A stretch of 32,000 nt of DNA from an uncultured bacterium (lineage in GTDB: Bacteria > Auribacterota > JACPWU01). The notes below the pieces were generated by a model. The model saw nothing but the letters and a program-made list of their open reading frames with translations. It did not search any database and was not told the origin of the DNA. Of the stretch, positions 448 through 28,406 are shown piece by piece (the stretch's first letter is position 1; each line of letters begins with the position of its first letter). Made by a program: the position numbers and the translations under genes. The stretch spans positions 270,001-302,000 of the forward strand of contig CAZXEQ010000002.1 in the NCBI GenBank assembly GCA_964640155.1. Direction: 5' to 3'.

Positions 448-1710
448 ATGAAATTTGATTACATTGCAACGGATGCAAAAGGCAAAGAGACACGGGGTGT
501 TGTTGATGCTGAAAACACCGTGACGGCGATTAATATTTTAAGAGGCCGTGGTCTTTTTCCAACCAGTGTGACTGAATCCTCCTCAGCTCAAAAATCTGCT
601 GGCCAGGGAATGCTTTCTATTTCTCAAGGAGAAAAGAAAAAACTCAACTTTCTTACGAATCTTCTCAAACCGAAAACCATCAAACCCAAGGTATTAACAG
701 TCTTTACCCGCCAATTAGCAGTATTGATCGATGCGGGTTTGCCCATTTTAAAAAGTCTTCACGTTTTAAAAGACCAAGAGAAAAACAAGCTTTTAAAAGA
801 AACGATTCAATCTTTGGGAGATATAGTAGAATCAGGAAGCACTTTTTCTGAATCATTGGGACGATTCCCAAAAATTTTCGACAAGCTTTATGTGAGCATG
901 GTTCGAGCCGGTGAAATGGGAGGCGTGCTTGATGAAGTTCTGAATCGTTTGTCCGAATTCATGGAAAAAGCTCAGCGCTTGAAAGCTCGCATCAAAGCAG
1001 CCATGGTTTATCCTACCCTCGTTCTAGTGTTTGCGATGGGCATTGTCACCTTTCTAGTGACAGTCATTGTCCCCAAGTTTGCAGAAATATTTCTTGAAAT
1101 GGACATTGATCTTCCTGGATTGACTGCAACCCTGATTGGAATCAGTAATTTCACGAAACGCCGATGGTATGTTTTCATTCTTATGTTTACTCTCATCGTC
1201 ACCGCTTATCGTACCATCAACAAAACACCCAAAGGAAAACTTAAACTGGATACTGCCAAACTTAAACTTCCTATCTTTGGTGATCTCATTCGAAAAGTAA
1301 GCATTGCTAGCTTTTCAAGAACACTTGGGACTTTGATTGCAAGCGGCGTTCCCATTCTAAAAGCATTGGCCATTGTCAGAGATACGATTAGTAATCAAGT
1401 GGTTGTAAACGCCATAACCCTTATTCATGACAGCATCCGAGAAGGGGAATCCATTGTGGGGCCTATGCGCGAAAGTGGAGTTTTTCCCCCCATGGTTGTG
1501 GGTATGGTAGATGTCGGAGAGCAAACCGGAAATTTAGCTGAAATGCTAACCAAAGTTGCAGACACTTATGATGAAGAAGTCGATGTCGCAGTTCAAGGAC
1601 TCACCGCTGTCTTGGAACCTTTGATGATCATTACCTTGGCCTTTATTGTTGGATTCATCGTCATTGCCATGTTCTTGCCATTAATCAAATTGATGCAGGG
1701 AATATCCTAA
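448..1710 (+). CDS. pilC: Type IV pilus assembly / T2SS platform protein (PilC/GspF family)
   Basis: The 420-aa ORF has two GspF-type repeats (..FTRQLAVLIDAGLPILKSL.. and ..FSRTLGTLIASGVPILKAL..) and three predicted TM segments. It lies directly downstream of the PilB/GspE ATPase. Confidence 0.85.
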   Translation: MKFDYIATDAKGKETRGVVDAENTVTAINILRGRGLFPTSVTESSSAQKSAGQGMLSISQGEKKKLNFLTNLLKPKTIKPKVLTVFTRQLAVLIDAGLPILKSLHVLKDQEKNKLLKETIQSLGDIVESGSTFSESLGRFPKIFDKLYVSMVRAGEMGGVLDEVLNRLSEFMEKAQRLKARIKAAMVYPTLVLVFAMGIVTFLVTVIVPKFAEIFLEMDIDLPGLTATLIGISNFTKRRWYVFILMFTLIVTAYRTINKTPKGKLKLDTAKLKLPIFGDLIRKVSIASFSRTLGTLIASGVPILKALAIVRDTISNQVVVNAITLIHDSIREGESIVGPMRESGVFPPMVVGMVDVGEQTGNLAEMLTKVADTYDEEVDVAVQGLTAVLEPLMIITLAFIVGFIVIAMFLPLIKLMQGIS

Positions 1711-13572: not shown

Positions 13573-13614
13573 AAACTTTTTCTCCTTTTTTGAAAGATGA
13601 AAAAAAATTTTTTT

Positions 13615-16470
13615 CTATTCCATCACCGTAACATTATCTATAGAGACTGATCCCAAATTATAGTTACTCAAGAAACCTACAGAATTAGTTGTGAAAGAAT
13701 TGGTTTGTATAGGTTCATTCGTAAAGATGGCAGTGTCATCAATAAACAGATCTGTGAGAACATAGGGAGAGTTTGGACGAATAGCAATTCTCACATGATG
13801 AGGTGCACCTCGTGCTCCCACACCTGGATACCATTGATAAGTCCCTGTAAAGCCCTCATAGATCCCATCTCTCCAACCACATCGATTAGGATTTACGTCC
13901 AAGGCGATCCCTCGATAAACAAATCCACCCCAGCCATCACTAGAGTTAGAGAAAGTAACATCGTAACTGACCGTGACGTTTCTCTCTGAAATATAAAGAT
14001 CATAAGGTGAGAAGAAACTATAACCTCCTGTTCCAACAACTGTGAAGACCAATGCCCCCGACATTAAAGTCCAGTTAATATCATTGGTGTTTCCGGAGCC
14101 AATCCATGAATTTAAATTCGTGCTAAAATCATAACTGGCCGATACAAATCCTGCAGGTATGAGCTGAGTCATGTCTTTGAGAATAATACTATCGACGTTG
14201 TAAGATCCGCTAACATTATAATGAGATAAAAATCCAATCGTATTGTTAGGAAAGCTTGTAGCTTCTATAGGCTCATCAATGAAAATAGGCTTACCATCCA
14301 CATATAAATCACTTCTATAATAAGGACTTGCTGATCTTACAAAGAGAATCACATGATGAGTAACATTTTTTGTAAGACCTGAAAACCATCGATAGGAGCC
14401 AGGAAGACTTTCGTGGTTTCCATCTCTCCATCCAATTCGATTAGGATTCAGATCAAGGTTAATGCCTCTGAATCTTACTCCACCCCAGCCATCTGTATTA
14501 TTGAATAAGACATCATACTCTAGAGCAATACTGCTGTTACTTGAGATGTTAAGGTTTGTGTTATCTAAATAAGCATATCCACCTGTTCCCACAACTTGAG
14601 ATCGAAGGGCATTACCTACGATACTCCAAGTTACATTCGATGTGGCTCCTGTTGCGCCCCATCCTGATGGAAGACTGCTTGCATCAAAGTTTTCTTGATA
14701 GAGCAGACCCGGGTTAGTTCCTGGAGCTGGAGGAGTTACGACTGTAATACTTAAGGTTTCAGTAGCAGTAAGACTTCCATCACTGGCTTGTACAGTAATG
14801 CTGTAGGCTCCCACATCTGTGCTAGAGGGAACCCAGGTAAACACGCCTGTGGTTGGATTAATGCTTGCACCTGCAGGGAGCCCTGTGGCCGTGTAGGTGA
14901 TCGTGTCTCCATTGGGATCGGAGCCTTGAGCTTGAAAGGTTAAAGTTGATCCTGCAACGACTCTTTGAGCTCCTATGCCATCTAAAGTTGGGGCTAAGTT
15001 GATCCCTGCACTTCCTGAAGTTACATTCAAATTGTCATATAAATTTGCTCCCGTGAAGTAGTTTGAGATAAATCCGATTGTCTTATCAGGATATGTTGTA
15101 ATCTGTATGGGTTCATTGTTAAAAATTAAACTCCCATCAATAGACAGTCTCGATAAATCATAAGGGCTACTTCTTTGAATATTTAAAATAATATGATGAC
15201 TTGTTCCTGCACTAACTCCGCTATACCATTGATAATTTCCAGGATGCCCTTCGTAAGATCCATCTCTCCATCCGATTCTTGAGGTGTTAATATCTAGTCC
15301 CACGCCTCGATAAAATATTCCACCCCAATTCTGAGGGGTCATATCAAGAACGATCGTGATATCTTGCCCTGAGAGATCGAGTAAGGCATGCTTGAGGTAG
15401 CCATATCCTGTTGCTGAAACTGCACTGCTGATATTGCTTCTTAACGCTCCTGCAACAAAATCCCAAGCGATGTTAATGTTTCCACTTGCAATCCAGGCGC
15501 CATAGTCACTTGCATTAAAGTTATCACTGAAGGGAAGCAATAGCGGAGCTGGGTTAGGATAAATCATAAAGTTATCCCACGTGACTGTACCTGTACTGTA
15601 ATTGGATATAAAGCCTACTGTGTTACTGGAAAATGTATTCGTTTCTATAGGCTCATTGATGAATATCGGTTTACCATCAATGTAAAGATCTGTTCTGTAT
15701 GGATAGGGATTGGAACTGCTGAGTGCAACTTTTTTAACTAACATCAAAATATGATGTTTTACCCCTTTACTCACTCCTGCATACCATTGATAGGTTCCAG
15801 GAAGACTTTCATAGTTTCCATCTCTGACTCCACATCGATTCGTATTTACGTCCAAGTGTATTCCTCTAAACCAGATTCCTCCCCAACCATCATTTGTAGA
15901 GCTAAATGTAACATCGTAGCTTACTGCCAGAGTACTCATAGTACTAATGTTAAGCGAGTCTGGAATAATAAAGCTATAGCCTCCTGTCCCTATGCCCTTT
16001 GATACAAGTGCATTATTAGTAGCAGACCAGGTTATATTACTTGTAGCACCGCTCACACTCCATCCATTGTAATTTCCATCATTAAAATTATCGCTGAATA
16101 AATAAGAACTGACAGAACTCGAGCTTAAAGGATTGGTTCCCGCTATGACTTCATATAAATCATTCATACCATCATTATCAGTATCTGTATTATTGGAGTC
16201 TGTTCCATAATTCATTTCCATGATATTAGAAAGTCCATCGCTGTCGGCATCTTGTAATGCATCGTTTGTTAGGGGATCGTGATTATTTGTCAATTCATAT
16301 CCATCGGGCATTCCATCTGAATCTGTATCGGAAACAATAGGATTAGTATTATTTTGATATTCCTGCAAGTTTGAAAGTTCGTCACCATCAGCATCTCCAC
16401 CAACAGTTTGATTTAAATTCCAAAAATAATAGGCTTCCCAATAATCCCACAAACCGTCACTATCCGTATC
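13615..16470 (-). repeat. Shared C-terminal cassette, copy in the 2006-aa protein (about aa 1056-2006): TSP3 repeats, R1, R2, Ig-like, R3, R4
   Basis: This copy is collinear, domain by domain, with 19729-22325. Approximate sub-boundaries are R1 15550-16134, R2 15020-15549, Ig 14745-15005, R3 14185-14700 and R4 13618-14150. Confidence 0.8.
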
Positions 16471-19400
16471 TACCTTTGTTCTTGACCAGGTCGTGCCCAT
16501 GAGATTTCCATTTACATCTCGTGGTTCAATACTAAGTGTTTTTGTTGTTCCATTGAAAGTGCATTTTAAATATCCCCAAGCTGTGTTATTACGTTCCATT
16601 GAAAAGGTAGCTGCGGCTCCCGAAAATGTATATAAACTTGCGCCTCCATTGCCGGTCACATAATATTTAACTCCGGATGCATTATTTTGAGCTCCTTTGA
16701 GGATTGGATAAAATTGTTCATAATGGTGATTATGGCCTTGAAAAACAGCATCTACATGATAGCTTTCGAAGATAGGGACAAGTTCTGCTCTGACATCGGG
16801 ATCGTATCCATGCGATGAAGTCGTTGAAGAATAGGCAGGTTCATGCAGATAAACAATCTTGAAAGGTTGACTCGTCGCAGCCAAGTCTTGTTCAAGCCAA
16901 GTTTTTTGCGTATTCCATAAGGATGTGCCTATGTAACTTTTATTAGCATCGAGGGCAACAAAATGAATGTCCCCATAATCAAATGAATAAAAAAGTTCTT
17001 CCGCACTGGCACCCATTCCATTTGGATAAATGTAATAAGCATCTTTGGAGGGTTGGCCATTGTATGTATCGTGATCATGATTTCCAAAAGTTGGATAATA
17101 AAAAACTGAATGAAATACATCTTTATATACGTCAAAAACATAGCTTTGAATTTGTTGGGCTGTCCCACTGGAATACGCATTATCGCCCACGGTGAGCACA
17201 AAATTTACAAGGGCTGTTTTAATTTGGTTTTTAACAGCCGTTTCATTAGAGGTTCCTGATCCCCAGTCTCCAATCACTGCAAACGAGAAATTTTGCGCAG
17301 TGTCAGGAGCAACATGCGTTTTAAATTGATAAACAGTATCCGAGGGATTTACTTTTAGAATCTGATTATTTGTTTTAATTCGATAATAATATAAAGTTCC
17401 TGCAGTTAGCCCTGTGATATTGACTTGATGCGTTGTACCGCTGGAACCTGTGGCGATGAGGCCCAAATCTGTAGTAGGACCGTATTCAACAGTACTGTCC
17501 CCAAAAATATCTGTTTGCCAAATAATAGAGACTTCGGTTGTTTTCCCCATTTGAAGAAAAGGCCCCCGTGTGAGCGTTGTAAGAGAACCTGTGAGATAAG
17601 TTACAGGATAGCTATTGTACTTCATTACTTGTTTGGTGGAGTCATCCAGAATATAAATCGAAGCTGTTGTAGAAGGATAGGCCGCAACAACTGCAATTCC
17701 CTCCTGCTCCGTTCCAGGCAAAATGTATTCTTTGAGAACTGTACCGTCAGGATACATTTCCAATAGCCGATTGGCTGAATCGAAAATTGCATAGAGTTTT
17801 TCTGTCTGGGCATCAAAATAAAGTCCCGCAATATCCGTTATGCCCGGAACAATCGTAAGGGTATCCACATAGGATATTTGGCCATTTTGTGAGAGGTTCA
17901 CATCGAAAATGTAGATCTTCCCATCAGCCTGTAATCCTGTATAGAAGAGGCCCCCCGAACTGCTGTTAGGGTAAGGGTGATAACTGTTGGGAACAAATGT
18001 TAACGCTTCTAGTCCTGAATTATCAGGCCCCGTCATCCAAGGGGTTAGTGACCAAGAACGTCCGGTGAGCGTTCCTGTCGAAATATCAAACTCACGAATG
18101 GAATCTGGATGTTCCACACCGAGATAAATATAGTTAGAATTTGCGTTTGCAATTGTAATTCCCTCAAGATCCCCGCCCGGGCTCCAAGTAATTATTTGAG
18201 AGCCATCCGCATTCATTTGACTCACTTGCCCTTCATCACTGACAATAAAAAGTTTTTGAAGACGCGTATGCCAAACTGCATCGCTCGGCTCGTACCCTGA
18301 AGGAAGATTCGAACCAATATTTATACCGCTTCCTGCCGGCCAAGGCTGAACTCCTCCCGGCGCCTCGGCATAGATATTATTACTAAAGCCTGTCGGCCAG
18401 TTGTTCGCTGAAAAATCACCATCGCCAAAAACTTTTCCATATCCCTGTTGAATAGATGCCTTGGAAGAATAACTTGCATCAATGACTGCATCTGTTCTAT
18501 AAGGCTGATAAAAAGTATTGCCCGTGGCCGTAACATCACATCCCGGGGAGAAATAAAGCAATGTTCCGCCATTATTTGAAACTCGATTGAAGAAAAAATT
18601 ATTCTGTAAAATGATGCGACTGAAGGAAGAACTTCCATAGGGACCCAAGGTAGCGGTATACCCATAAACCTGTGAATCTCCGATATTATTATTTGCAATG
18701 GTGTAAGGACCCGCCCCTTCTAAAACGAGGTTTGTCAATCCATTATAAGTGATGAAGCTGTATTCCAAAACTGCATTAACACCCCAAAGTTTAACGCCAT
18801 CTCCACAGACATTTCTCACCTGAGCTCTTTGAACAAGAACATTGTTAGCTTTTAAATCTATCCCGTCTCCTTGACTTCCCATAATCTGAACACGCTGTAT
18901 CGTAATACGATTGCCTCTTTCAACAGCAATCCCATCTGCAGCCGTGTCATTGCCAGTCTCGGTCATGCTTAAAATAACGTCTCGAATCGTGACATCTTCA
19001 ACAGCACCGTCTCCTAAATCAATCCCTGCCTGACTGTAACCCGTTGCGGTCACATTTTGAATTAAAATATTACTGGCGATGAGAGAAGGGTTTGTGGGCA
19101 TCAAGACAATACCCGAAGGCCCATCAGAAGGACGTGGTTCATTCGCTTGAAATTTAATCACCTCTCCACCGCCAACGACAATCAAATTACTTAGCGTTAT
19201 ATTGTCATTATTAATCCAGCCCACAATCGCGTAGGTCTCGAAGTTTTGTATCGTCAGATTTTGGACAGTGATGTTGTCAAAAGAACCCATATCTGTTTCT
19301 CCGTCAAAGCTGATTCCATATCCTGTACTTCCTGCAAACGCCCCGTTTAAAATAACCTGCTCATTTTGATAGCCCGACAACGTAACGCCTGAACATTTAA

Positions 19401-19635
19401 ATTGAACATTTTCTTGATAGGTTCCTACTCTTGCATAAACGGTATCTCCACTTTGAATTCTGTCGAGAGCGAACTGGATGGTTTGCCAGGGATTAGAAAT
19501 AGTACCAGAAGAATTATCGCTCCCTGAAGGACTAACATAATAGAAGGCGGCTTCAGAACAGGCGCTGAACATTATAAGAAAAAGTATGACGAGGAAGGGG
19601 GCCTGCCATTTTAAAAGGCCTCTTACAAAATTCAT
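13615..19635 (-). CDS. Giant secreted, probably lipid-anchored, multidomain protein. Domains: right-handed beta-helix, SdiA-regulated/phytase-like beta-propeller, purple acid phosphatase-type metallophosphoesterase, thrombospondin type-3 Ca repeats and the shared C-terminal jelly-roll/Ig cassette
   Basis: The 2006-aa ORF has a signal peptide with a lipobox-like MFSAC and a DUF1565/beta-helix start (YYVSPSGSDNSSGT..NPW.TIQFAL). The propeller-like region contains DLEGITI and SGLEALTF. PAP motifs GDWG, GDNAY, GNHDH, YLHEP and GHNHHYE are present, as are DxDxDG repeats (DTDSDGMPDGYE, DADSDGLSN, DTDNDGMNDLYE). Four LamG-like repeats and one Ig-like domain follow. Confidence 0.85.
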   Translation of the reverse strand: MNFVRGLLKWQAPFLVILFLIMFSACSEAAFYYVSPSGSDNSSGTISNPWQTIQFALDRIQSGDTVYARVGTYQENVQFKCSGVTLSGYQNEQVILNGAFAGSTGYGISFDGETDMGSFDNITVQNLTIQNFETYAIVGWINNDNITLSNLIVVGGGEVIKFQANEPRPSDGPSGIVLMPTNPSLIASNILIQNVTATGYSQAGIDLGDGAVEDVTIRDVILSMTETGNDTAADGIAVERGNRITIQRVQIMGSQGDGIDLKANNVLVQRAQVRNVCGDGVKLWGVNAVLEYSFITYNGLTNLVLEGAGPYTIANNNIGDSQVYGYTATLGPYGSSSFSRIILQNNFFFNRVSNNGGTLLYFSPGCDVTATGNTFYQPYRTDAVIDASYSSKASIQQGYGKVFGDGDFSANNWPTGFSNNIYAEAPGGVQPWPAGSGINIGSNLPSGYEPSDAVWHTRLQKLFIVSDEGQVSQMNADGSQIITWSPGGDLEGITIANANSNYIYLGVEHPDSIREFDISTGTLTGRSWSLTPWMTGPDNSGLEALTFVPNSYHPYPNSSSGGLFYTGLQADGKIYIFDVNLSQNGQISYVDTLTIVPGITDIAGLYFDAQTEKLYAIFDSANRLLEMYPDGTVLKEYILPGTEQEGIAVVAAYPSTTASIYILDDSTKQVMKYNSYPVTYLTGSLTTLTRGPFLQMGKTTEVSIIWQTDIFGDSTVEYGPTTDLGLIATGSSGTTHQVNITGLTAGTLYYYRIKTNNQILKVNPSDTVYQFKTHVAPDTAQNFSFAVIGDWGSGTSNETAVKNQIKTALVNFVLTVGDNAYSSGTAQQIQSYVFDVYKDVFHSVFYYPTFGNHDHDTYNGQPSKDAYYIYPNGMGASAEELFYSFDYGDIHFVALDANKSYIGTSLWNTQKTWLEQDLAATSQPFKIVYLHEPAYSSTTSSHGYDPDVRAELVPIFESYHVDAVFQGHNHHYEQFYPILKGAQNNASGVKYYVTGNGGASLYTFSGAAATFSMERNNTAWGYLKCTFNGTTKTLSIEPRDVNGNLMGTTWSRTKVDTDSDGLWDYWEAYYFWNLNQTVGGDADGDELSNLQEYQNNTNPIVSDTDSDGMPDGYELTNNHDPLTNDALQDADSDGLSNIMEMNYGTDSNNTDTDNDGMNDLYEVIAGTNPLSSSSVSSYLFSDNFNDGNYNGWSVSGATSNITWSATNNALVSKGIGTGGYSFIIPDSLNISTMSTLAVSYDVTFSSTNDGWGGIWFRGIHLDVNTNRCGVRDGNYESLPGTYQWYAGVSKGVKHHILMLVKKVALSSSNPYPYRTDLYIDGKPIFINEPIETNTFSSNTVGFISNYSTGTVTWDNFMIYPNPAPLLLPFSDNFNASDYGAWIASGNINIAWDFVAGALRSNISSAVSATGYGYLKHALLDLSGQDITIVLDMTPQNWGGIFYRGVGLDINTSRIGWRDGSYEGHPGNYQWYSGVSAGTSHHIILNIQRSSPYDLSRLSIDGSLIFNNEPIQITTYPDKTIGFISNYFTGANLYDNLNVTSGSAGINLAPTLDGIGAQRVVAGSTLTFQAQGSDPNGDTITYTATGLPAGASINPTTGVFTWVPSSTDVGAYSITVQASDGSLTATETLSITVVTPPAPGTNPGLLYQENFDASSLPSGWGATGATSNVTWSIVGNALRSQVVGTGGYAYLDNTNLNISSNSSIALEYDVLFNNTDGWGGVRFRGINLDLNPNRIGWRDGNHESLPGSYRWFSGLTKNVTHHVILFVRSASPYYRSDLYVDGKPIFIDEPIEATSFPNNTIGFLSHYNVSGSYNVDSIILKDMTQLIPAGFVSASYDFSTNLNSWIGSGNTNDINWTLMSGALVFTVVGTGGYSFFSPYDLYISERNVTVSYDVTFSNSSDGWGGFVYRGIALDVNPNRCGWRDGIYEGFTGTYQWYPGVGARGAPHHVRIAIRPNSPYVLTDLFIDDTAIFTNEPIQTNSFTTNSVGFLSNYNLGSVSIDNVTVME

Positions 19636-19728
19636 GTTCGTTCCTACCCTTCTGCCCCCAAACTTGCCTTTCCTTCTAATATCGACTCCTTATATACAAA
19701 TAATAAAAGACTATCTCTTACGATGCTT

Positions 19729-22325
19729 CTATTCTGTTACTACAACATTATCTACAGAAACAGAACCTGAATAATATCCACTTCCAAAACCTATGAAATT
19801 GCTCGGGAATGTGCCACATTCAACAACTTCATTTTCAAAAATAGCATTCCCATTAATGGTCAAGTCCATGAGAACATAAGGGGAAGCGGGTTTAAATTTG
19901 ATTTTAACATGATGACTACTTCCTTTAGTAAGTGTGCTGGGATACCATTTATACGTCCCAGAAAAACCTTCATATACGCCATCTCTTGCTCCATATCGAT
20001 TCGGACAAATGTCAATTCCAATTCCTCGATAAAGAAATTGCCCCCAACCATCCGAATTGCTGCTGAATGTGACATCATAATCGACCGTGATTGTTTTTCC
20101 TGCAATATTTAACCCGGCCGACTGTATAAAACAGTAACCTCCACTTCCTATCACTGTTGCAGTTAATGCTCCCGAAGCAATAGACCAATTCACATTGTTC
20201 ACGGCTCCGCTTGTGGTCCAATTATTGAGGTTGGAGCTAAAATCATAACTGGCCAGTACCGTACCAGGAGTAGCCGGTTGTGTCGTATCTTTCGCAAGAA
20301 TACCATCAATGCTATAAGAGTTCCCGAGATAATAATGAGACAAAAATCCAAAGTTACTAACAGAAAGGCCTGATGCTTCAATGGGTTCATTGATAAAAAC
20401 AGCTTTCCCATCCACATGAAGATCACTTAAATAGTAGGGACTTGCTTTACGAATAGAAATTATGACATGATGCAAAACATTTTTACTAATTCCTGTGAAC
20501 CATTTATAACTCCCAGAATAACCTTCATAAGACCCATCTCTCCATCCACATCGGTTAGGATTAATATCCAGGCCAACCATTTTTCCAGAACTTCCAACTC
20601 TAAAGCCTCCCCAGCCATCTGTATTGTTGAATATAACATCATATTCTATAGAAAAACTATCCAAACTCGACAAGTTCACACTTGTATTATCTAAGAAAGA
20701 ATATCCTCCTGAGCCAATTACTTTACATTGTAAAGAGCCCCCATTCACTGTCCAATCTACATTACCAGTAACTCCAGTTTCCACCCATCCACTCAATGAC
20801 GCCGTATCAAAATTTTCTTGAAAAACAGCGCCGGGGGTACTTGCCGTTTGCGTCGCAGAAATAACAATGGTTTCGCTATCTGTAAGACTTCCATCGCTAA
20901 CTTGAACAGTCACATTATATGTGCCAGCATCTGTCTCTTTTGTAGCCCAATTGAAAGCCCCTGTACTTGGATTGAGCGTGGCACCAACGGGAAGACCTGT
21001 TGCAGTGTAAACTAAATTATCTCCGTTTAAATCAATCGCTCGTACTTGAAATGAAAGGGGTTGCCCCACTTTAACACTTTTGTCACCAATACTATTCATC
21101 AAAGGAGCCAAATTGGTTCCTACACTCACAGCTGTTACACTTGTATTGTCCCACAAAACATTTCCTGTATAAAGATTGGATGTAAATCCAACTGTTTTAT
21201 CTGAATAACTTGCTATTTGTATGGGTTCATTTTGAAAAATCAGTGTATTGTCTACATACAGTTTAGATAAATCATAAGAATTTGTTTTTTCTATCATCAA
21301 TATCACATGATGTGAAGCTCCAGAACTCATTCCGCTGAAAGGCTGATAACTACTATCTTTCCAGCCAATGGCTGTTGTATTAAGCTCTAAAGAAACCCCG
21401 CGATAAATAAATGCCCCCGAACTTTGAGGAGTGATATCAAATTCAACAATCACATCTTTTCCACTCACATCCAATAATGCGTGTTTGAAACTTCCAATAC
21501 CTATTCCACTGTCTTGGGCTTGTATAGTGGACCTCAATGATCCAGAAGCAAAATCCCAGATCACTTTGCTATTTCCACCTGAAATCCACAAACCATAATC
21601 ACTTGAATTAAAGTTGTCACTGAAGGGTAAGAGTAACGATGTAGAAATAGAATAAACAGTAAAATTGTCGCATGTCACTGTTCCATTCTGAGAATAATTG
21701 GAGGCAAATCCTATTGTGTTTGGGGTCAAATTGGCCACTTCTATCGATTCATTGAGAAAAATAGGTTTGCTATCAATGTACAAATCACTTGTATAATAAG
21801 GAGATCCTTTCTTTATAAAGATCAAGACACGATGTTTAACCCCCTTACTCATACCTGCATACCATTTGTAAGTCCCCGAAAGACCTTCATAAGGGCCATC
21901 TCTCCATCCACTGCGATAGGCATTGACATCCAGATGTTTATTGATAACTACACCTCCCCAACCATCACTGTCTGAACTAAAGGTTACATCGTAACTTATT
22001 ACAAAGTTATTTACAGAAGCCAGATTTAAAGATGTTGTTATGAAACCATATCCTCCACTTCCGACAGCACGCGAAACAAGTGCATTTGTTGTCGCAGACC
22101 ATACTATATTGTTCGTCGCTCCACTGGCACTCCAACCGTTCGTGTTTCCATCATTAAAATCATCTTTAAATAAATAAGCACTGACAGAACTTGCATTTAA
22201 AGGATTGGTGCCTGCAATGCTTTCATATAAATCATTCATGCCATCTCCATCGCTATCCGTAACATTTGGGTTGGTTCCTGATTTTAATTCACTCCCATCA
22301 CTGAGACCATCTCCATCCGAATCTA
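19729..22325 (-). repeat. Shared C-terminal cassette, copy in the 2599-aa protein (about aa 1736-2599)
   Basis: The order matches: TSP3 (DSDGDGLSDGSE..DSDGDGMNDLYE), R1, R2, Ig-like, R3, R4. Both proteins end ..SVS(I/V)DNV(T/V)V(M/T)E. Approximate sub-boundaries are R1 21641-22182, R2 21125-21640, Ig 20850-21120, R3 20290-20845 and R4 19732-20280. Confidence 0.8.
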
Positions 22326-25300
22326 ATGAATATGAAGAAATCACATTCGATATAAGAGAGACATTTCCCATATTATCTGTTGTTTTAATTGCAAAATAAT
22401 ATTCAGTCGATGAAAAATTTAACCCAGATATGCTCAAGGATTCTGATCCTCCAGCGGCCTTCGGCTGAGGAGAATTGCTGATAACAGTTGCCGATGAAAA
22501 ATTGGAAGATGTAATGGGAGAAGCGGAATAACGCATATTATAAGAACTCGCTGTTCCTATTGAACCATCATCTCCGGGTGCCGTCCAAGCAAGTGTTATT
22601 GAAGATGAAGAAAGACTGGTCATTCTTAAATCAGAGATGGTTGCAGGAGCTGTTGCATCTTGAGTTACCACTAACTCGACAGGAATTTGAACACTGGGGT
22701 TGGCTCCATCATTGCTTTTGATATTCAGAGTTGCTTTATAAGAACCTGATGAAATATTCACGCCTGTATATTGCACACTGATATTTGCAGATGAAGACGC
22801 CACTACAGTGCCAGTAACAGGTTGCACAGAAAACCAGGCAAAATCTGTTTTGTTATCTAGAACCTGAATATCATCAATATAAAAACCTTCATAAGCATTG
22901 AGATATGCATCTACTGTATCAAAAGTAAAACGTAAAATAACTTTCTTACCTTTATAAGCTGTCAAATCTAAAGAGCCGGAAGAAGTCCAAGCAGATTCAG
23001 AAACATTGGCTCCATCCTTATACCAAAGCAATGCCCAAGAAGAACCTGCATTGCTTGAAATCTCCAGATAAGTTTTGTCTCCTGGAACAGAAGGGTAATA
23101 CTCCACCGTTCTCCAAAATTTGAAAGACAGCTGAGGCGTTGTCCCTGAAGTTAAATCAATTTCTGGAGAAGTCAATGTCCCTTTATTAATGGCTCCTGTC
23201 TCATAATTTCCCGTGGATTCACTTCCATAATAGAAAGCATGCGTTGCACTTGAATAGCGACGTGTTGAAGAATGCCATAAGCCCGTTGCGGTCCAACCAG
23301 AAGCATTTTCACAATCATTGTTATAAAGTGCCACCGCCTCACCTGTAGTAGCCGAAGCAACATTGGAAAGGCCAGAAACATTTCCAACATCATCCGTCAC
23401 TTTCATTGCAAAATAATAAACTGTTTTTTGAGTCAATCCCGTAATGGTCAAAGATTCTGCGCTACCAGATGACTTAGGAGCTGGAACACTGGATACCAAG
23501 GTCGCCGAGCTAAAATTGGATGAATTAATTGCACTGGTTGAATAGCGAATCTCATAAGATGTCGCCGTACCTGTATTTCCATCATCTCCCGTAGCTGTCC
23601 ATTTAAGTTTCACGGTTGAGAAAGAAAGGGTTTCTGATGTTAAAGTGCTGACCGCAGAAGGAGGCGTCGTCTCAGCATTCTGCATCGCCTTGTGTACATT
23701 GAGTCTACCACCTGAAATTGTTTTGCCAGATAAACTCGAAACTTTATCCGTTCCACTTAAAATTTGACTTTTGACTTTTGCGTAAGTCCAAGAAGGATTG
23801 GCAGCCCATATAAGCGCACAAGCCCCCGCTACATGTGGTGTTGCCATCGATGTTCCACTCAAAGACCCATATGTGTTGGAAGGAAGCGTACTGTAAATAT
23901 TTACACCTGGTGCGCCCAAATGAACAGTCGTGGCACCAAAACAAGAGAAAGAAGCCAATAAATCTTTATTGTCCGTAGCTGCTACAGAAATGACATTTGC
24001 AACTTGATAATTTGATGGATAGTGAGGGGTTTGATCATTATTCGTTCCATTGTTTCCTGCGGCCGCGACAAATAAAGCTCCTTTGGAATTGGCTACGACA
24101 ATTGAATCATAAAGAGCTTGCGAATAACCTCCTCCTCCCCAACTATTGCTCAAAATTTTAGCCCCTTTATTAGCAGCATAAAGCACCGCAGAAACTGCAT
24201 CTGAAGTAGATCCAGAACCACTTGCACTTAAAAATTTAAGAGGCATGATTTTCACTGTCCAGCTCACACCTGCAACACCCACTCCATTGTTCCCAACTGC
24301 ACCAATCGTGCCTGCACAATGGGTTCCATGTTTGTTATCATCATAGGGATCTTTATCTTCATTCACAAAATCCCAACCACGAATATCATCGACATAACCA
24401 TTTCCATCATCATCAATGCCATTGTTGGCGATTTCTCCAGAATTGGTCCACATATTGGCAGCTAAATCAGGATGATTGTAATCCACTCCCGTATCAATAA
24501 CCGCCACTACAATATTACTGCTTCCCTTAGTTATATCCCAAGCTTCAGGCGCATCAATATCCGCATCGGATGTTCCTCCGGTTTGGCCTGTATTGTGCAA
24601 CCCATAAAGTGAAGAGAAACTGGGATCGTTGGGAGTCGCATTAACACTCACAATATAATTGGGTTCTGCATATTCCACCAAACCACTGGCAACATAAGAT
24701 TTTGCAAGACGCGCTGCATCCATATTGGAAGCCGTCTCAATCAGGTGAACACCTATTTCAGCATGGGTCTTCACCACACGAGCATCTAGTCCTTGCGCCA
24801 AATCTCGAAGCGCCCCAGCACTGACACCTTCTTTAAATTTCACAAGAATTTGGCCAGGTAAATAAGGAGCCACTTTGGTGGATGTATTAATTTTAGCGGG
24901 GTCTGGAGCACCAGTAGAACTGGAGCTAACAGAAGCACCTTCAGAAATTTCAAAAGAAAGATCGGAATCCCCGGTATTCTGAATCGTGAGTGTTTGAGAT
25001 GTTGTGGCCCCAACATCTAAGGCAACCTTGGAAAGACTTGAAGGAGTTACATTCATTTTTGGGCCGACTTTTGTTTTTGCACTGATCACATTTGAAAGAC
25101 CGGAAACATTATAAAGATCATCTTTTGCTTTCATTGCAAAATAGTACGTAACGCCTGTGGAAAGGCCTGTCACTTCAAAAGTTTCTGCACTCCCTGAAGT
25201 GGTTGGGGCCAAGAGCCCTGAAACCTGTGTCGCTGAAGAAAAATTAGAAGCGGTGATGGTACTTGTAGAATATCTTAAATCATAAATTGCGGCCTTACCC

Positions 25301-27528
25301 ACAGCCTCATCGTCTCCCGGTGCAGTCCAAGTTAATGTCACCGATGAAAGCCCTGTGGTACTCGCTGCTAAATTAATAATATCTGAAGGAGGTGTAACAT
25401 CGGCAGAACCTTCTGCTAAAATTTGAATATCATCGACAAACCATCCTTCAAAAGTATTATAATAGTCATCTAACGTATCGAAATAGAACCTTATTAAAAC
25501 GGTCTCCCCATCATAGTCTGAAAGATCAATTGTTACTTTTTCCCATTTTGCATTGGTAGAATAAGATTTATACACAGTTGTCCAAGTACTTCCTCCATTT
25601 TGTGAAACTTGCACAGAAGCTTCATCATAAGGAGCATAGTTTTCTGTTGTAAGATAATGATTAAAAATCAGGGTTGAAGAAGTTGCATTCGTTAAGAAAA
25701 TTGGGGAAGAAATCAGTGAACCATTATTTTCATAACCTGTATCGTAATTGCTTGTCGTTTCACTCCCATAGTAGAAGGATTGGGTCGCACTCAGCGAGCG
25801 CTTTGAAGACAAATGCCAAAGGGTATTTCCTCCACCCCCATCTGTTCCCGATAATGACCACATGCTTTGTCCATTTTCAAAATTTTCGCTAAAAATAGCT
25901 GTGCCCTGTGTTGTCTTGCTCGATACAACATTTGAAAGAGCTGACGCATTTCCCACATTGTCTCGCACTTTCAAAGCAAAATAATAAGTTGTATTGGCAG
26001 CTAATCCTTTTACCTTAACCGTCTCTGTTTGGCCTGAAGCTTTAGGAGCCGAAAGTCCTGTCACTTGTGTTGCAGAACTCCATGTAGATTCTGTAATAGC
26101 ACTGGTCGCATATCTTAAATCATAGGAACTGGCTGTGCCTGTTGTTCCATCGTCTCCCGTCGCTGTCCAAGATAAAACTACACTAAAAAAAGAACTGCTT
26201 TGAACAGCAACAGTACTTATAGCCCCTGGAGCTGTTGAATCATTATCCATAAAATTATAAATATTAAGCCTTCCACCTGTCACTGTTTTCCCCGACAAAG
26301 CAGAAGCAGGATCTACTGTGGAAAGAATTCTATCTCTGATTTGAGTGTAAGTTGAATTAGGCAATTGAGACCACATTAAAGCGGCAGCACCTGACACATG
26401 AGGACAAGCCATGGAAGTTCCGCTTAACGAACCATACTGATTGCCAGGTTTGGTGCTGTAAATATTCACGCCAGGTGCGCCTAAATCGACAGTGGTCGCT
26501 CCATAATTAGAAAAAGAAGCCAATTGATCATTCGCATCTGTCGCAGCCACTGAAATCACATTCGCCACATCATAAGCTGCGGGATACATGGGACTCACAT
26601 CTGCATCGGCTGCACTGTTACCCGCAGCTGCAATAAAAAGAGCACCTGCATTTCGATTGACCACCATGGCATCATACATCGCTTGAGAAAATCCGCCGCC
26701 GCCCCAGCTATTACTGGAAATTTTAGCACCCATTTGAGTTGCATAGTTCAAGCAAGAAATCGCATCTGAAATGTATCCGGAACCGCTAGAACTCAAAAAT
26801 TTTAGCGCCATAATTTTGGCTCTCCAAACCACACCCGAAACTCCAATCCCATTGTTGCCCACACCTGCAATGGTTCCTGCACAATGTGTTCCATGATAAT
26901 GATCATCCATAGGATCGTTGTCATCATTGGCAAAATCCCATCCATGAATGTCATCGATGTACCCATTTCCATCATCATCCATGCCATTGCCAGCAATTTC
27001 ACCTGGATTGGTCCACATATTGGCCGCCAAATCTGGATGCGTGTAGTCTACTCCTGTGTCAATCACTGCAATGACAAAATTTGGATCACCGGTTTGAACA
27101 TTCCATGCTTCAGGAGCATCTATATCAGCGTCTGATGTGCCTCCTGTTTGCCCAGTATTATTCAATCCATAAAGACTTGAAAACGAAGGATCATTAGGCG
27201 TTTGACTGATTTGAACGATAAAGTTGGGCTCTACATAACGGACTTTGGATGATTTTTTGAGAAGAGTTAAAGCTTCTTCAACAGACATCCCTTCAGGAAG
27301 TTTATATTGATGGACATTATTAATATTAAATTTCTCTATCTGTTCGGCATTGATGGATCGACGAAGTTGACGAATCTCGGAGCTGGACGTTCCAGGTTGA
27401 TAACGAACCAAAATTTCATCTTTAGCATATGGCAAGGATTCTTCAGCTGACATTAAAGAGGATTGTCCTAAGAAAATAAAAGCAGCAACAAAAACTCCTA
27501 AAAAGATTGAATGGGCGGCCTTTCTCAT
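19729..27528 (-). CDS. Giant secreted tandem double subtilase. Twice over it carries an I9 propeptide, S8 peptidase, FN3, MAM-like, FN3 and Ig-like domain, followed by thrombospondin type-3 Ca repeats and the shared C-terminal jelly-roll/Ig cassette
   Basis: The 2599-aa ORF has a signal peptide (..FLGQSSLMSA/EES) and two complete catalytic sets. Set 1 is DTGVDYTHPD, HGTHCAGTIAG, SNSWGG and GTSMACPHVSG (Ser about aa 372). Set 2 is DTGVDYNHPD, HGTHCAGTIGA, SNSWGG and GTSMATPHVAG (Ser about aa 1227). Each set is preceded by an I9-like propeptide. AAGGAG lies 8 nt upstream of the ATG. Confidence 0.9.
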   Translation of the reverse strand: MRKAAHSIFLGVFVAAFIFLGQSSLMSAEESLPYAKDEILVRYQPGTSSSEIRQLRRSINAEQIEKFNINNVHQYKLPEGMSVEEALTLLKKSSKVRYVEPNFIVQISQTPNDPSFSSLYGLNNTGQTGGTSDADIDAPEAWNVQTGDPNFVIAVIDTGVDYTHPDLAANMWTNPGEIAGNGMDDDGNGYIDDIHGWDFANDDNDPMDDHYHGTHCAGTIAGVGNNGIGVSGVVWRAKIMALKFLSSSGSGYISDAISCLNYATQMGAKISSNSWGGGGFSQAMYDAMVVNRNAGALFIAAAGNSAADADVSPMYPAAYDVANVISVAATDANDQLASFSNYGATTVDLGAPGVNIYSTKPGNQYGSLSGTSMACPHVSGAAALMWSQLPNSTYTQIRDRILSTVDPASALSGKTVTGGRLNIYNFMDNDSTAPGAISTVAVQSSSFFSVVLSWTATGDDGTTGTASSYDLRYATSAITESTWSSATQVTGLSAPKASGQTETVKVKGLAANTTYYFALKVRDNVGNASALSNVVSSKTTQGTAIFSENFENGQSMWSLSGTDGGGGNTLWHLSSKRSLSATQSFYYGSETTSNYDTGYENNGSLISSPIFLTNATSSTLIFNHYLTTENYAPYDEASVQVSQNGGSTWTTVYKSYSTNAKWEKVTIDLSDYDGETVLIRFYFDTLDDYYNTFEGWFVDDIQILAEGSADVTPPSDIINLAASTTGLSSVTLTWTAPGDDEAVGKAAIYDLRYSTSTITASNFSSATQVSGLLAPTTSGSAETFEVTGLSTGVTYYFAMKAKDDLYNVSGLSNVISAKTKVGPKMNVTPSSLSKVALDVGATTSQTLTIQNTGDSDLSFEISEGASVSSSSTGAPDPAKINTSTKVAPYLPGQILVKFKEGVSAGALRDLAQGLDARVVKTHAEIGVHLIETASNMDAARLAKSYVASGLVEYAEPNYIVSVNATPNDPSFSSLYGLHNTGQTGGTSDADIDAPEAWDITKGSSNIVVAVIDTGVDYNHPDLAANMWTNSGEIANNGIDDDGNGYVDDIRGWDFVNEDKDPYDDNKHGTHCAGTIGAVGNNGVGVAGVSWTVKIMPLKFLSASGSGSTSDAVSAVLYAANKGAKILSNSWGGGGYSQALYDSIVVANSKGALFVAAAGNNGTNNDQTPHYPSNYQVANVISVAATDNKDLLASFSCFGATTVHLGAPGVNIYSTLPSNTYGSLSGTSMATPHVAGACALIWAANPSWTYAKVKSQILSGTDKVSSLSGKTISGGRLNVHKAMQNAETTPPSAVSTLTSETLSFSTVKLKWTATGDDGNTGTATSYEIRYSTSAINSSNFSSATLVSSVPAPKSSGSAESLTITGLTQKTVYYFAMKVTDDVGNVSGLSNVASATTGEAVALYNNDCENASGWTATGLWHSSTRRYSSATHAFYYGSESTGNYETGAINKGTLTSPEIDLTSGTTPQLSFKFWRTVEYYPSVPGDKTYLEISSNAGSSWALLWYKDGANVSESAWTSSGSLDLTAYKGKKVILRFTFDTVDAYLNAYEGFYIDDIQVLDNKTDFAWFSVQPVTGTVVASSSANISVQYTGVNISSGSYKATLNIKSNDGANPSVQIPVELVVTQDATAPATISDLRMTSLSSSSITLAWTAPGDDGSIGTASSYNMRYSASPITSSNFSSATVISNSPQPKAAGGSESLSISGLNFSSTEYYFAIKTTDNMGNVSLISNVISSYSLDSDGDGLSDGSELKSGTNPNVTDSDGDGMNDLYESIAGTNPLNASSVSAYLFKDDFNDGNTNGWSASGATNNIVWSATTNALVSRAVGSGGYGFITTSLNLASVNNFVISYDVTFSSDSDGWGGVVINKHLDVNAYRSGWRDGPYEGLSGTYKWYAGMSKGVKHRVLIFIKKGSPYYTSDLYIDSKPIFLNESIEVANLTPNTIGFASNYSQNGTVTCDNFTVYSISTSLLLPFSDNFNSSDYGLWISGGNSKVIWDFASGSLRSTIQAQDSGIGIGSFKHALLDVSGKDVIVEFDITPQSSGAFIYRGVSLELNTTAIGWKDSSYQPFSGMSSGASHHVILMIEKTNSYDLSKLYVDNTLIFQNEPIQIASYSDKTVGFTSNLYTGNVLWDNTSVTAVSVGTNLAPLMNSIGDKSVKVGQPLSFQVRAIDLNGDNLVYTATGLPVGATLNPSTGAFNWATKETDAGTYNVTVQVSDGSLTDSETIVISATQTASTPGAVFQENFDTASLSGWVETGVTGNVDWTVNGGSLQCKVIGSGGYSFLDNTSVNLSSLDSFSIEYDVIFNNTDGWGGFRVGSSGKMVGLDINPNRCGWRDGSYEGYSGSYKWFTGISKNVLHHVIISIRKASPYYLSDLHVDGKAVFINEPIEASGLSVSNFGFLSHYYLGNSYSIDGILAKDTTQPATPGTVLASYDFSSNLNNWTTSGAVNNVNWSIASGALTATVIGSGGYCFIQSAGLNIAGKTITVDYDVTFSSNSDGWGQFLYRGIGIDICPNRYGARDGVYEGFSGTYKWYPSTLTKGSSHHVKIKFKPASPYVLMDLTINGNAIFENEVVECGTFPSNFIGFGSGYYSGSVSVDNVVVTE
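22306..24870 (-). repeat. Intragenic tandem duplication, unit 2 (about aa 887-1741)
   Basis: The domain order matches unit 1. The protease cores are clearly similar by hand alignment, for example TPNDPSFSSLYGL.NTGQTGGTSDADIDAPEAW, which is identical in both. Boundaries are approximate. Confidence 0.75.
24871..27435 (-). repeat. Intragenic tandem duplication, unit 1 (about aa 32-886): I9-S8-FN3-MAM-like-FN3-Ig-like
   Basis: The unit is collinear with unit 2 at a constant offset of 855 aa. This was checked at the PY of the propeptides (aa 33-34 vs 888-889) and at the catalytic Ser (372 vs 1227). Boundaries are approximate. Confidence 0.75.
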
Positions 27529-27556
27529 TCTTAAATCTCCTTTTACCTCAAAGACT

Positions 27557-27862
27557 TTAAAGCGCTTGAACCTCCTGATTATGCTCTATATATTCAATCT
27601 GCTTATCTTTCTGCAAGGCCCCCATGACCTTTTCTACATTTTCCCCCAACACACGACATAAAAAAAGATTTTGAATGCCTGGATATTCTCTTACCAATTC
27701 CAATTTTTTTTCCTTCATCAACTGATCAATGTTCGATCTTGAAACCTCTAGTTTAAATTTAATTAAAATTTCTTTCGCCGGATCTCTTTGGGCATATACA
27801 AAAACCGACAGCATTAAACTCATTCCAAAAATAAACCCTATTTCTAAAAATCTTTTTTTCAT
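27557..27862 (-). CDS. Small secreted stand-alone subtilisin-propeptide-like (peptidase inhibitor I9-like) protein
   Basis: The 101-aa ORF has a signal peptide (MKKRFLEIGFIFGMSLMLSVFVYA/QR). Its mature part aligns by eye with both propeptides of the downstream subtilase. EILIKFK..IEYIEHNQEV matches EILVRYQ..VRYVEPNFIV and QILVKFK..VEYAEPNYIV. A GAGG RBS is present and the stop lies 28 nt upstream of the subtilase ATG. Confidence 0.75.
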   Translation of the reverse strand: MKKRFLEIGFIFGMSLMLSVFVYAQRDPAKEILIKFKLEVSRSNIDQLMKEKKLELVREYPGIQNLFLCRVLGENVEKVMGALQKDKQIEYIEHNQEVQAL

Positions 27863-27875
27863 GAAACCTCATGTC

Positions 27876-27913
27876 AAAAAAAATGCCTATTCTTCAATTT
27901 CCGAAGAATAGGC
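27876..27913 (-). terminator. Strong intrinsic terminator in the operon leader, 13 nt upstream of the first start codon
   Basis: On the - strand the sequence reads GCCTATTCTTC-GGAAATT-GAAGAATAGGC. This is a perfect 11-bp stem with a 7-nt loop, followed by A and then eight T residues. Confidence 0.8.
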
Positions 27914-27948
27914 GCATACCAAAACTCTAAAGCTTTTTGCTTTATCCG

Positions 27949-28026
27949 GCAGTCTGGCGACCCCAAAAATTCGGGGTCCATAACTTTGCGCCCTATCCTT
28001 ACGGATAGTTTACCTTTTACAGATGC
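27949..28026 (-). ncRNA. Candidate riboswitch aptamer, three-way junction with c-di-GMP-I (GEMM-I)-like sequence and architecture
   Basis: On the - strand P1 is GCATCTG paired with CAGA(C)TGC. The J1/2 junction ends in GGTAAA. P2 is CTATCC-GTAA-GGATAG with a GNRA loop. J2/3 is GGCGCAAAG, followed by UAUGG. P3 is GGACCCC-loop-GGGGTC(G)C, followed by CUGCCGGA. The V. cholerae Vc2 aptamer as I recall it has GGGCAAA-CCAUUC-GAAA-GAGUGG-GACGCAAAGCC. No covariance model was run. Confidence 0.5.
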
Positions 28027-28088
28027 TTATATATTCAATTGTCAAAAAGAGGTCATTGCATCAATAAACGTTACTTTGATCAGCTATT

Positions 28089-28118
28089 ATCATAATCCAG
28101 TTTCAAGTAAGAGGTCAA
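28089..28118 (-). promoter_or_regulatory. Candidate promoter for the leader and giant-gene operon
   Basis: On the - strand TTGACC (28118-28113) is followed by an 18-nt spacer and TATGAT (28094-28089). This would give a leader of about 220 nt. The context is AT-rich, so specificity is low. Confidence 0.3.
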
Positions 28119-28341
28119 GCAAAATATTAGTTTTAATTATATTTGTAATATATTTTAATGCAATAAGTTAAAGAATAAACACTAATTTGACAAAAGGCTA
28201 TTCGTATGGTATATCCTTTTAAGAGGTTTTTTTAAAAAGAGATTGTATTCAGGAAGTAATACATTATTTCTATTACTATTTGATTACGAGTATATTATAG
28301 AATTAAATACTCTTTATGAATTGTTTTTGATTCACCATTTG

Positions 28342-28406
28342 AAGCGTAGGGTGTCTTGACATTCAAGTGTCTCCCCCACACACGCGAGATGCTCTACGCT
28401 TTTTTA
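28342..28406 (+). terminator. Terminator-like branched stem followed by a T-run, upstream of the OsmC-family gene. Possibly an sRNA 3' end or a leader attenuator
   Basis: AAGCGTAGGGT (28342-28352) pairs with GCTCTACGCTT (28391-28401), including two G-U pairs. The stem encloses 38 nt containing the hairpin CTTGA-cat-TCAAG. The paired T at 28400-28401 run on into TTTT (28402-28405), giving six consecutive T. Confidence 0.35.

Follow-up and report, generated by a model that had tools for sequence, protein, structure and literature searches.

A predicted operon for a free subtilase propeptide and two giant secreted hydrolases downstream of a putative class I c-di-GMP riboswitch

Introduction

The functional class I riboswitches for c-di-GMP, or cyclic diguanosine monophosphate, of Clostridioides difficile are terminator-type OFF switches, and one of them stands ahead of the gene for the secreted protease PPEP-1 (PMC6366702, PMC11477304). 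In the leader of that gene, ppep-1/zmpI (CD2830), a GEMM-I aptamer and an intrinsic terminator together act as an OFF switch, so that synthesis of the protease takes place at low c-di-GMP (PMC11477304, PMC6366702). Here we describe the same pairing of aptamer and terminator in a secreted-protease leader from an uncultured bacterium, found in a 32,000-nucleotide stretch of DNA (the window; positions 270,001 to 302,000 of contig CAZXEQ010000002.1, assembly GCA_964640155.1; coordinates below are window positions). Whereas ppep-1 is a single small metalloprotease gene of a Gram-positive organism, the leader here precedes a predicted three-gene operon in a metagenome-assembled genome (MAG) of the diderm Planctomycetes–Verrucomicrobia–Chlamydiae (PVC) type, encoding subtilases, a phosphatase, a β-helix, a free propeptide protein and lectin-like cassettes, and its OFF polarity is predicted from RNA folding. 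On balance we think it probable that the three genes form one transcription unit under a class I c-di-GMP riboswitch, most likely an OFF switch, which would confine a protease, phosphatase and glycan-active toolkit to conditions of low c-di-GMP.

The proteins have parallels of their own. ORF2 of Aeromonas sobria is encoded beside its protease and acts in the periplasm. Together with POIA1, a fungal I9 inhibitor, it exemplifies separately encoded, ~70–100-aa binders of subtilases with the propeptide fold (PDB 1itp, 1v5i, 3wqb). The first gene of the operon (gene 1) differs from these in lying upstream, not downstream, of a subtilase gene (gene 2), and that subtilase keeps two cis-prodomains of its own. 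Tandem fused subtilases are otherwise known from CspBA, to whose family gene 2 has only a weak NCBIfam match. Deseasin MCP-01 (3vv3), which provides the closest solved catalytic domain, is likewise a secreted subtilase with C-terminal non-catalytic binding domains, but gene 2 fuses two complete pro-subtilase units within 2,599 aa and follows them with a four-module lectin-like cassette. Finally, dockerins, SLH domains, type IX secretion system (T9SS) C-terminal domains (CTDs) and carbohydrate-binding modules share with this cassette the principle of one C-terminal unit placed on unrelated catalytic heads, exchangeable at a linker, within and across genomes; the unit here is an 870-aa jelly-roll array resembling concanavalin A (ConA), with no sequence relation to any of them in Pfam or NCBIfam.

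A preliminary description of the window had not recognised the combination as a known system. That judgement stands for the genes and falls for their control, a riboswitch-controlled secreted protease having been described already (PPEP-1, PMC11477304). Control of this type is thus familiar. The novelty lies in the lineage, in the rare lectin-like cassette and in the gene combination, with its free propeptide gene beside a two-headed pro-subtilase.

Riboswitch aptamer

The suggestion of a second-messenger-type RNA switch in the leader proved apt: an Rfam scan places a class I c-di-GMP (GEMM-I) aptamer on the minus strand at 27944–28023, with helices P1, P2 (capped by a GUAA tetraloop) and P3, and an intrinsic terminator follows it. 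The aptamer scores 61.3 bits on RF03167, the model of the GGC variant (gathering score 59; E = 2.5e-12), and clan competition within CL00126 masks lower-scoring overlapping members, the score on the canonical model RF01051 among them. The leader folds more stably than shuffled sequence (z = −4.7). A sigma-70-like promoter, TTGACC-18-TATGAT, lies just upstream on the same strand (28118–28089; 10 of 12 matches in a consensus scan). Both of its hexamers are kept in the one related leader that we found, in assembly GCA_041906865.1 (locus L020), where the −10 hexamer is TATAAT.

In the Vc2 riboswitch c-di-GMP is contacted by G20, A47 and C92 (PMC4744006, PMC5888326). The aptamer has G at model position 10, A at position 37 and C near position 75, in a UGCC segment, matching the canonical G20, A47 and C92, and the 27 nt between positions 10 and 37 equal the spacing of G20 and A47 in Vc2. 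We located the diagnostic nucleotide by comparing the Rfam consensus lines, GACGCAAAgC for RF01051 and GACGCGAAgC for RF03167, with a control match in phage phiCD119 as the canonical example; the window reads GCGCAAAG, that is, GCGC-A-AAG. Assignment to the true GGC variant, with G at the A47 position (consensus ACGCGAAG), was considered and rejected, both the window and the related leader having A in the reading GCGCAAAG. The aptamer thus shares with RF03167 the compact P3 and the overall architecture and differs from it at the A47 position. Because the contact nucleotides are the canonical G, A and C, c-di-GMP is the likely ligand of what appears to be a canonical-pocket c-di-GMP-I aptamer; G at the G20 position also argues against a variant of the cyclic GMP–AMP (cGAMP) type, which has A20.

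In the related leader the aptamer carries a 61-nt insertion in P3 with complementary flanks and reaches 53.1 bits on RF03167. Since the insertion takes the score below the gathering score of 59, automated annotation would miss this riboswitch. The insertion (L020 4298–4370) is predicted to form a three-way branched extension, the base of P3 staying paired. More generally, the Rfam GGC sub-model may give top scores to aptamers with the canonical binding-site nucleotide, and variant calls deserve a check at the diagnostic position.

The exact leader sequence had no match in metagenomes. A degenerate search with the aptamer core returned 50 metagenomic loci (L027–L076), all GC-rich, unrelated GEMM-I riboswitches that are uninformative on the operon. 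These share the core AAAGGYAAAC...GGGCGCAAAG, of the same sub-type lacking the A that precedes consensus C44, and many of them have a long second structured region ahead of the first gene.

Expression platform

The terminator (27875–27913, minus strand) begins 30 nt downstream of the aptamer and ends 13 nt upstream of the gene 1 start codon. With a 13-bp stem, GCCUAUUCUUCGG/..GAAGAAUAGGC, and a run of eight U residues (U8), it is the top terminator-like site in a scan of a region of ~16 kb, and its stem is identical in the related leader. Its 5′ arm is complementary to the 3′ strand of P2 together with pocket nucleotides (27987–27998, minus strand), the segment that serves as the antiterminator strand in minimum-energy folds of the nascent transcript. 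When the RNA is folded only as far as the terminator loop, the minimum-energy structure pairs this segment, GGAUAGGGCGCA, with the terminator 5′ arm, and the resulting antiterminator is 4.0 kcal/mol better than a fold that retains P2 (−48.1 versus −44.1 in the window, −89.5 versus −85.5 in the related leader). Every minimum-energy fold also contains a second hairpin (GCCGGA/UUUGGU; 27918–27950, minus strand) that masks the 3′ strand of P1; a G-to-A change within it in the related leader keeps the pairing, turning G-U into A-U. In the full-length minimum-energy fold P2, P3 and the terminator are all present.

The antiterminator uses up pocket nucleotides along with the 3′ strand of P2 and is thus incompatible with the ligand-bound fold, so that ligand should free the terminator. 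The folding therefore suggests a transcriptional switch that is probably OFF. At low c-di-GMP, the P2 3′ strand and pocket nucleotides of the nascent leader would pair with the terminator 5′ arm as an antiterminator while the second hairpin occupied the P1 3′ strand, and RNA polymerase would read through into the three genes. At high c-di-GMP, bound ligand would lock P1, P2 and P3, the terminator 5′ arm would be released, and the terminator hairpin with its U8 would halt transcription 13 nt ahead of gene 1.

Predicted operon layout

The preliminary description had set out three minus-strand genes behind one leader, and the open reading frames (ORFs) lie exactly so: gene 1 at 27862–27557 (101 aa), gene 2 at 27528–19729 (2,599 aa) and gene 3 at 19635–13615 (2,006 aa), separated by 28 nt and 93 nt. 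Shine-Dalgarno-like sequences precede all three (GAGG, AAGGAG and AGGA, respectively), that of gene 2 being the sole content of the 28-nt gap, and the terminator scan found no terminator-like site in either intergenic gap. Co-directional genes, short gaps, no internal terminator and a single upstream promoter point to co-transcription as a predicted operon. At the end of gene 3 (13573–13614) we found no canonical terminator closing the operon. Gene 3 and rsmI converge here, and the 42 nt that part their stop codons form an A7/T9 palindrome, GAAAAAAATTTTTTTTC, without a G+C-rich stem.

N-terminal export signals had been proposed for all three products, and each N-terminus does show a charged or basic n-region followed by a strongly hydrophobic core. 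Judged from these N-termini, all three products would be exported through Sec signal peptides.

The free propeptide and the double pro-subtilase

A Pfam scan of the three proteins returned prodomain, S8, Beta_helix, SdiA-regulated and purple acid phosphatase domains, in agreement with the domain make-up first proposed from the sequence. Gene 1, put forward as a free I9-like protein, matches PF22148 (Fervidolysin_NPro-like; 24.8 bits, cutoff 21). Its AlphaFold model has the order β-α-β-β-α-β, with a predicted local distance difference test score (pLDDT) above 90 for residues 31–94, and is of the I9 type: the best PDB match is the prosegment of subtilisin BPN′ (1spb_P; root-mean-square deviation 2.0 Å), pro-subtilisin E, furin prodomains and POIA1 also superpose well, whereas the fit to ORF2, the chaperone of the A. 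sobria serine protease, is poorer. In an alignment the C-terminus, ...EVQAL, falls where the two cis-prodomains of gene 2 end (IVQIS|QTP and IVSVN|ATP), and these ends coincide with the start position of the mature deseasin-like domain in the structure match to 3vv3. Gene 1 is thus modelled as a secreted protein with the subtilisin-propeptide (I9) fold that ends where cis-propeptides are cleaved.

Gene 2 bears out the claim of a double subtilase. In Pfam it has Peptidase_S8 and N-pro domains, two of each, along with fn3, MAM, Ig, TSP3 and He_PIG domains; the match to PF00082 (E = 2.5e-121) falls in two stretches. Unit 1 (26227–27438, minus strand) comprises a prodomain at aa 31–107 and a catalytic domain at aa 110–434, and unit 2 (23629–24876, minus strand) an internal prodomain at aa 885–960 and a catalytic domain at aa 963–1300. 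Each half of the protein runs prodomain, S8, fn3, MAM-like, fn3, Ig, and the halves are 49% identical over 854 aa, so that gene 2 reads as an internal tandem duplication. Each unit retains an intact Asp/His/Ser triad and its oxyanion Asn, with motifs starting, in units 1 and 2 respectively, at residues 155 and 1010 (VIDTGVD), 212 and 1067 (HGTHCAG), 273 and 1128 (NSWGG) and 370 and 1225 (GTSMA(C/T)PH). The structure match to deseasin MCP-01 (3vv3) has E = 8.8e-110.

In the mechanism that we propose, the gene 1 protein would dock into the active-site cleft of each deseasin-like subtilase domain of the gene 2 protein and serve as its trans inhibitor or folding helper. A free propeptide gene directly upstream of a two-headed pro-subtilase offers a test case for inhibition or chaperoning in trans.

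The β-helix and purple acid phosphatase protein

Gene 3 carries Beta_helix, SdiA-regulated, Pur_ac_phosph_N, Metallophos, TSP3 and He_PIG domains in Pfam. A right-handed β-helix spans aa 37–440 (18316–19527, minus strand; PF13229, E = 1.9e-11), and a Pel9A-like_beta_helix match is on record for the protein. What had been called a propeller is better termed propeller-like, from a match to SdiA-regulated, a propeller family (E = 1.6e-6). The purple acid phosphatase core (16720–17556, minus strand) consists of PAP_N at aa 694–773 (PF16656) and Metallophos at aa 784–972 (PF00149). All five metallophosphoesterase motifs are present (GDWG at 789, GDNAY at 817, GNHD at 851, VYLHEP at 928 and GHNH at 967), GDNAY supplying the Tyr ligand of purple acid phosphatases, and the best PDB matches are plant purple acid phosphatases (E = 1e-15); in these respects the composition first proposed for this giant holds. 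To the toolkit gene 3 would contribute an intact purple acid phosphatase together with its pectate-lyase-like β-helix and propeller-like region.

In the public gene call, gene 3 begins at Met22 (1,985 aa). We kept the start at Met1 because only that form has a Shine-Dalgarno sequence, the AGGA 6 nt upstream of the ATG at 19635, and a signal peptide. The signal peptide ends ...LIMFSAC, which may be a non-canonical lipobox.

The shared C-terminal cassette

As the preliminary description held, the two giants carry a common C-terminal cassette on unrelated heads: the cassettes of gene 2 (19732–22323) and gene 3 (13618–16251), both on the minus strand, are 56% identical over 883 aa. Each runs from a TSP3 hinge through two lectin-like modules, a He_PIG Ig domain and two further lectin-like modules. 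The module, of ~176 aa, is modelled with a pLDDT of 87.4 and a predicted template modelling score (pTM) of 0.85 as a ConA-like jelly roll, for which Foldseek returned 353 matches in the PDB (E ≤ 1e-3), among them trans-sialidase lectin domains, legume lectins, the carbohydrate-recognition domains of the cargo receptors Emp46p and VIP36, and lyases of polysaccharide lyase family 7 (PL7). It belongs to no Pfam family (best match 3keto-disac_hyd, E = 0.09, 13.2 bits against a cutoff of 26.8) and has no match in NCBIfam.

The module is also rare. In an exhaustive profile search of 1.84 billion protein cluster representatives it matched only 64, for the most part giants. A scan of 185,579 species genomes (GTDB representatives, the source genome being absent from them) with the cassette alignment gave TSP3-repeat matches only and no lectin-like module. 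An initial homology search with the whole cassette was dominated by He_PIG Ig matches, full coverage being reached only by the proteins P0001 and P0002, and the module alignment is too divergent for deriving DNA patterns. The heads found on the cassette are S8, purple acid phosphatase and, in P0001 of the same genome, one resembling glycoside hydrolase family 14 (GH14); elsewhere they are M10-metalloprotease-like, glucoamylase-like and LamG/Calx-beta.

P0001 itself (1,358 aa; L004 4265–8341, L005 10001–14083) joins its GH14-like head to fn3, TSP3 and four lectin-like modules. In the source genome its gene has no riboswitch and directly follows a cluster of glycosyltransferase family 2 (GT2), radical S-adenosylmethionine (SAM) and GT2 genes. 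At another locus (L021) a cassette gene is followed by GT2, GT2 and GT1 genes. In all, cassette genes adjoin glycosyltransferase clusters at three loci, a proximity that hints at a link of the cassette to self-made polysaccharide.

Scans of the two giants with Pfam and NCBIfam revealed no known C-terminal sorting or anchoring signal (T9SS CTD, LPXTG, PEP-CTERM or the like), neither giant has a hydrophobic segment beyond residue 40, and the proteins end in ...DNVVVTE and ...DNVTVME. From the modelled fold and its occurrence we take the cassette to be a candidate exchangeable glycan-binding or tethering unit: its calcium-binding TSP3 hinge, four ConA-like modules and single Ig domain would keep the hydrolases attached to a surface of polysaccharide, which might be a substrate or the matrix of the cell itself. 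Rare, without a family in Pfam or NCBIfam, and swappable on proteases, phosphatases and glycosidases, the module is a candidate for a new targeting or tethering module.

Conservation in relatives

The window is of metagenomic origin, and the same proteins occur on Logan contigs and on a further NCBI contig. A search of 5.8 billion proteins recovered a single homologue of gene 1, 77% identical, in GCA_041906865.1, the assembly of the related leader. The synteny there is the same (TerC, RluA-like, methyltransferase, OsmC, leader, gene 1, start of gene 2), and the gene 2 start is 79% identical over the 107 aa up to the contig end. Promoter, aptamer core, antiterminator and terminator are essentially invariant between the two leaders; the synonymous divergence of the genes adjacent to the leader is 0.36–0.70. 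Purifying selection acts on gene 1 (dN/dS 0.29, dS 0.36, against its orthologue), as on the start of gene 2 (dN/dS 0.17).

In a more distant relative, GCA_016178005.1 (L025), whose MnmG is 79% identical, the slot convergent to rsmI holds one 1,427-aa S8 and TSP3 protein. This subtilase is 60% identical to residues 1297–1784 of gene 2, and the similarity ends exactly at the end of the TSP3 hinge. After the same hinge come four repeats of a different, unclassified domain of ~140 aa (L025 18612–21824) with only weak similarity to Bac_rhamnosid_N and PA14; the array appears to be a second uncharacterised cassette type. No gene 3 homologue lies beside this syntenic subtilase.

Conservation of the gene trio, which the preliminary description had named as a check on its proposal, is accordingly not what the relatives show: only the leader, gene 1 and the gene 2 start recur, in one close relative, and at the next distance there is a single shorter subtilase with a different cassette and no adjoining gene 3 homologue. 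The trio is a recent, lineage-restricted assembly, and its status as a conserved system lacks support in the relatives compared.

Weighing the alternatives

Several points weigh against an OFF-switched operon of cooperating exoenzymes. In the full-length RNA the terminator state needs no ligand to be favoured over the antiterminator (by 5.0 kcal/mol for the window, 1.2 for the related leader), so that the OFF model depends on kinetic, co-transcriptional folding; with two distinct leader sequences (n = 2), covariation lends the expression platform minimal support. The case is inferential for ligand binding, for termination and for co-transcription alike, the 93-nt gap may contain an internal promoter, and signal peptides were assigned by eye and hydrophobicity only. 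The gene 1 protein is only 22–30% identical to the cis-prodomains of gene 2, and since gene 2 has prodomains of its own, it is not evident why a third, free one should be required. In the cassette module we identified no residues for glycan binding. Lastly, architectures of lectin-like, TSP3 and Ig domains are typical of adhesins, which are usually induced, not repressed, by c-di-GMP.

If the giants are indeed matrix- or adhesin-like proteins, made in a sessile, high-c-di-GMP state, the riboswitch could instead be an ON switch in which c-di-GMP promotes read-through. Lectin-like modules, TSP3 calcium-binding repeats and Ig domains would suit such proteins, class I ON switches are exemplified by Bc2 (cap collagen adhesin) and Vc1 (gbpA) (PMC6366702, PMC4744006), and the default could be OFF, the terminator being already present in the ligand-free full-length minimum-energy fold. 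The layout of the leader makes this unlikely, though still a serious contender: the terminator forms a hairpin by itself, clear of the P1 3′ strand, the only alternative partner of its 5′ arm is the P2 3′ strand with the pocket, so that aptamer folding frees the terminator, and no ligand-dependent anti-terminator could be drawn. A different objection grants the switch and limits its reach, the riboswitch controlling gene 1 only and the giants, merely adjacent and functionally uncoupled, having their own promoters. A promoter might be concealed in the AT-rich 93 nt ahead of gene 3, the trio gives way to a single subtilase in the relative with the 79% identical MnmG, and the third cassette protein of the genome, P0001, is encoded elsewhere and lacks a riboswitch. 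We nevertheless find this arrangement distinctly unlikely, given a gene 1/gene 2 gap that is Shine-Dalgarno sequence only, no terminator-like site after either gene 1 or gene 2, a leader and gene 1–gene 2 order kept in the related assembly, and the functional coherence of a propeptide-fold protein immediately upstream of a subtilase.

The ligand and gene 1 invite narrower doubts. Of the Rfam models RF03167 scores best and, in the window, exceeds its gathering score, and the GGC variant has reportedly been proposed as a possible altered-specificity class, from which it might follow that the aptamer is a true c-di-GMP-I-GGC or other specificity variant with a ligand other than c-di-GMP. Yet the defining G at the A47 position is replaced in both leaders by A, as in canonical aptamers, G at the G20 position speaks against a cGAMP-type (A20) pocket, and the related copy falls below the RF03167 gathering score (53.1 against 59 bits), all of which makes a change of specificity very improbable. 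As for gene 1, its low identity to the cis-prodomains and its single homologue among 5.8 billion proteins might mark a functionless, decaying remnant of a duplicated prodomain. We give this almost no credence: both genomes retain an intact ORF of unaltered length with its signal peptide, the model of the core fold is of high confidence, and the dN/dS of 0.29 at a dS of 0.36 speaks against a pseudogene remnant.

We therefore return to an operon that is probably switched off by c-di-GMP. That its three products act as one apparatus, as first proposed, is something we infer from their association. If the regulatory part is true, the class I c-di-GMP riboswitch regulon extends to an operon of giant secreted hydrolases. 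A bolder idea, which we hold only tentatively and think rather doubtful, is that the TSP3-hinged four-module array is an unrecognised exchangeable system for surface or matrix tethering that displays giant hydrolases, that the c-di-GMP riboswitch shuts off their deployment, and that the free propeptide is a trans safety catch for the two-headed protease. If so, the array would do in an uncultured lineage labelled PVC/Chlamydiota what SLH domains or dockerins do elsewhere, and a group known mostly for dependence on hosts would have c-di-GMP signalling and a lifestyle of extracellular degradation.

Genomic surroundings

That lineage label comes from MnmG (window 7608–9470), whose closest named relatives are from MAGs recorded as 'Chlamydiae bacterium' (79% and 76% identity) and 'Chlamydiota bacterium' (66%), against ~61–63% in other phyla; the Chlamydiae placement is provisional and goes by record labels. 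In the Chlamydiae-labelled group, giant secreted hydrolases and a riboswitch for c-di-GMP would be out of the ordinary, and a literature search found no paper on c-di-GMP riboswitches in it.

The operon sits in an origin-proximal housekeeping block, with rnpA, yidC, mnmE, mnmG, parA, parB, an M48 peptidase gene and rsmI on one side and genes for OsmC, a methyltransferase, an RluA-like protein and TerC on the other. The preliminary description had also raised an export or contact link to PilB/PilC genes in the window. These (window 14–1710, plus strand) lie 12 kb off on the opposite strand, separated from the operon by rnpA, yidC, mnmE, mnmG, parA, parB and rsmI, in a conserved housekeeping block that relatives keep regardless of the operon, and the suggested link lacks support. 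Even their label is ambiguous between pilus and type II secretion: the T2SSF platform protein, though scoring slightly better as GspF than as PilC, passes neither the GspF model (407 bits, cutoff 424) nor the PilC model (396 bits, cutoff 700). In relatives two T2SSE ATPase genes precede the T2SSF gene, one of them with an MshEN domain from which the canonical c-di-GMP-binding MshEN motif is absent.

Between yidC and mnmE the window encodes a 524-aa VWA-domain protein without an NCBIfam match (4317–5891, plus strand). Its gene is kept at the related locus L024; L025 has other genes there, including one for a PIN-domain protein.

On the other side of the operon, the plus-strand stretch from the operon promoter to the OsmC-like gene (28187–28405) contains two blocks of ~70 nt that are 100% identical to a related genome, the intergenic DNA flanking them being diverged. 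It holds a near-consensus promoter (TTGACA, 17 nt, TG-n-TATATC; 28187–28215) and an 18-bp hairpin with a U-run (~28341–28405; z = −3.9), and has no Rfam match. Divergent from the riboswitch operon, it may encode a small RNA of ~180 nt or form a leader or attenuator of the OsmC-like gene.

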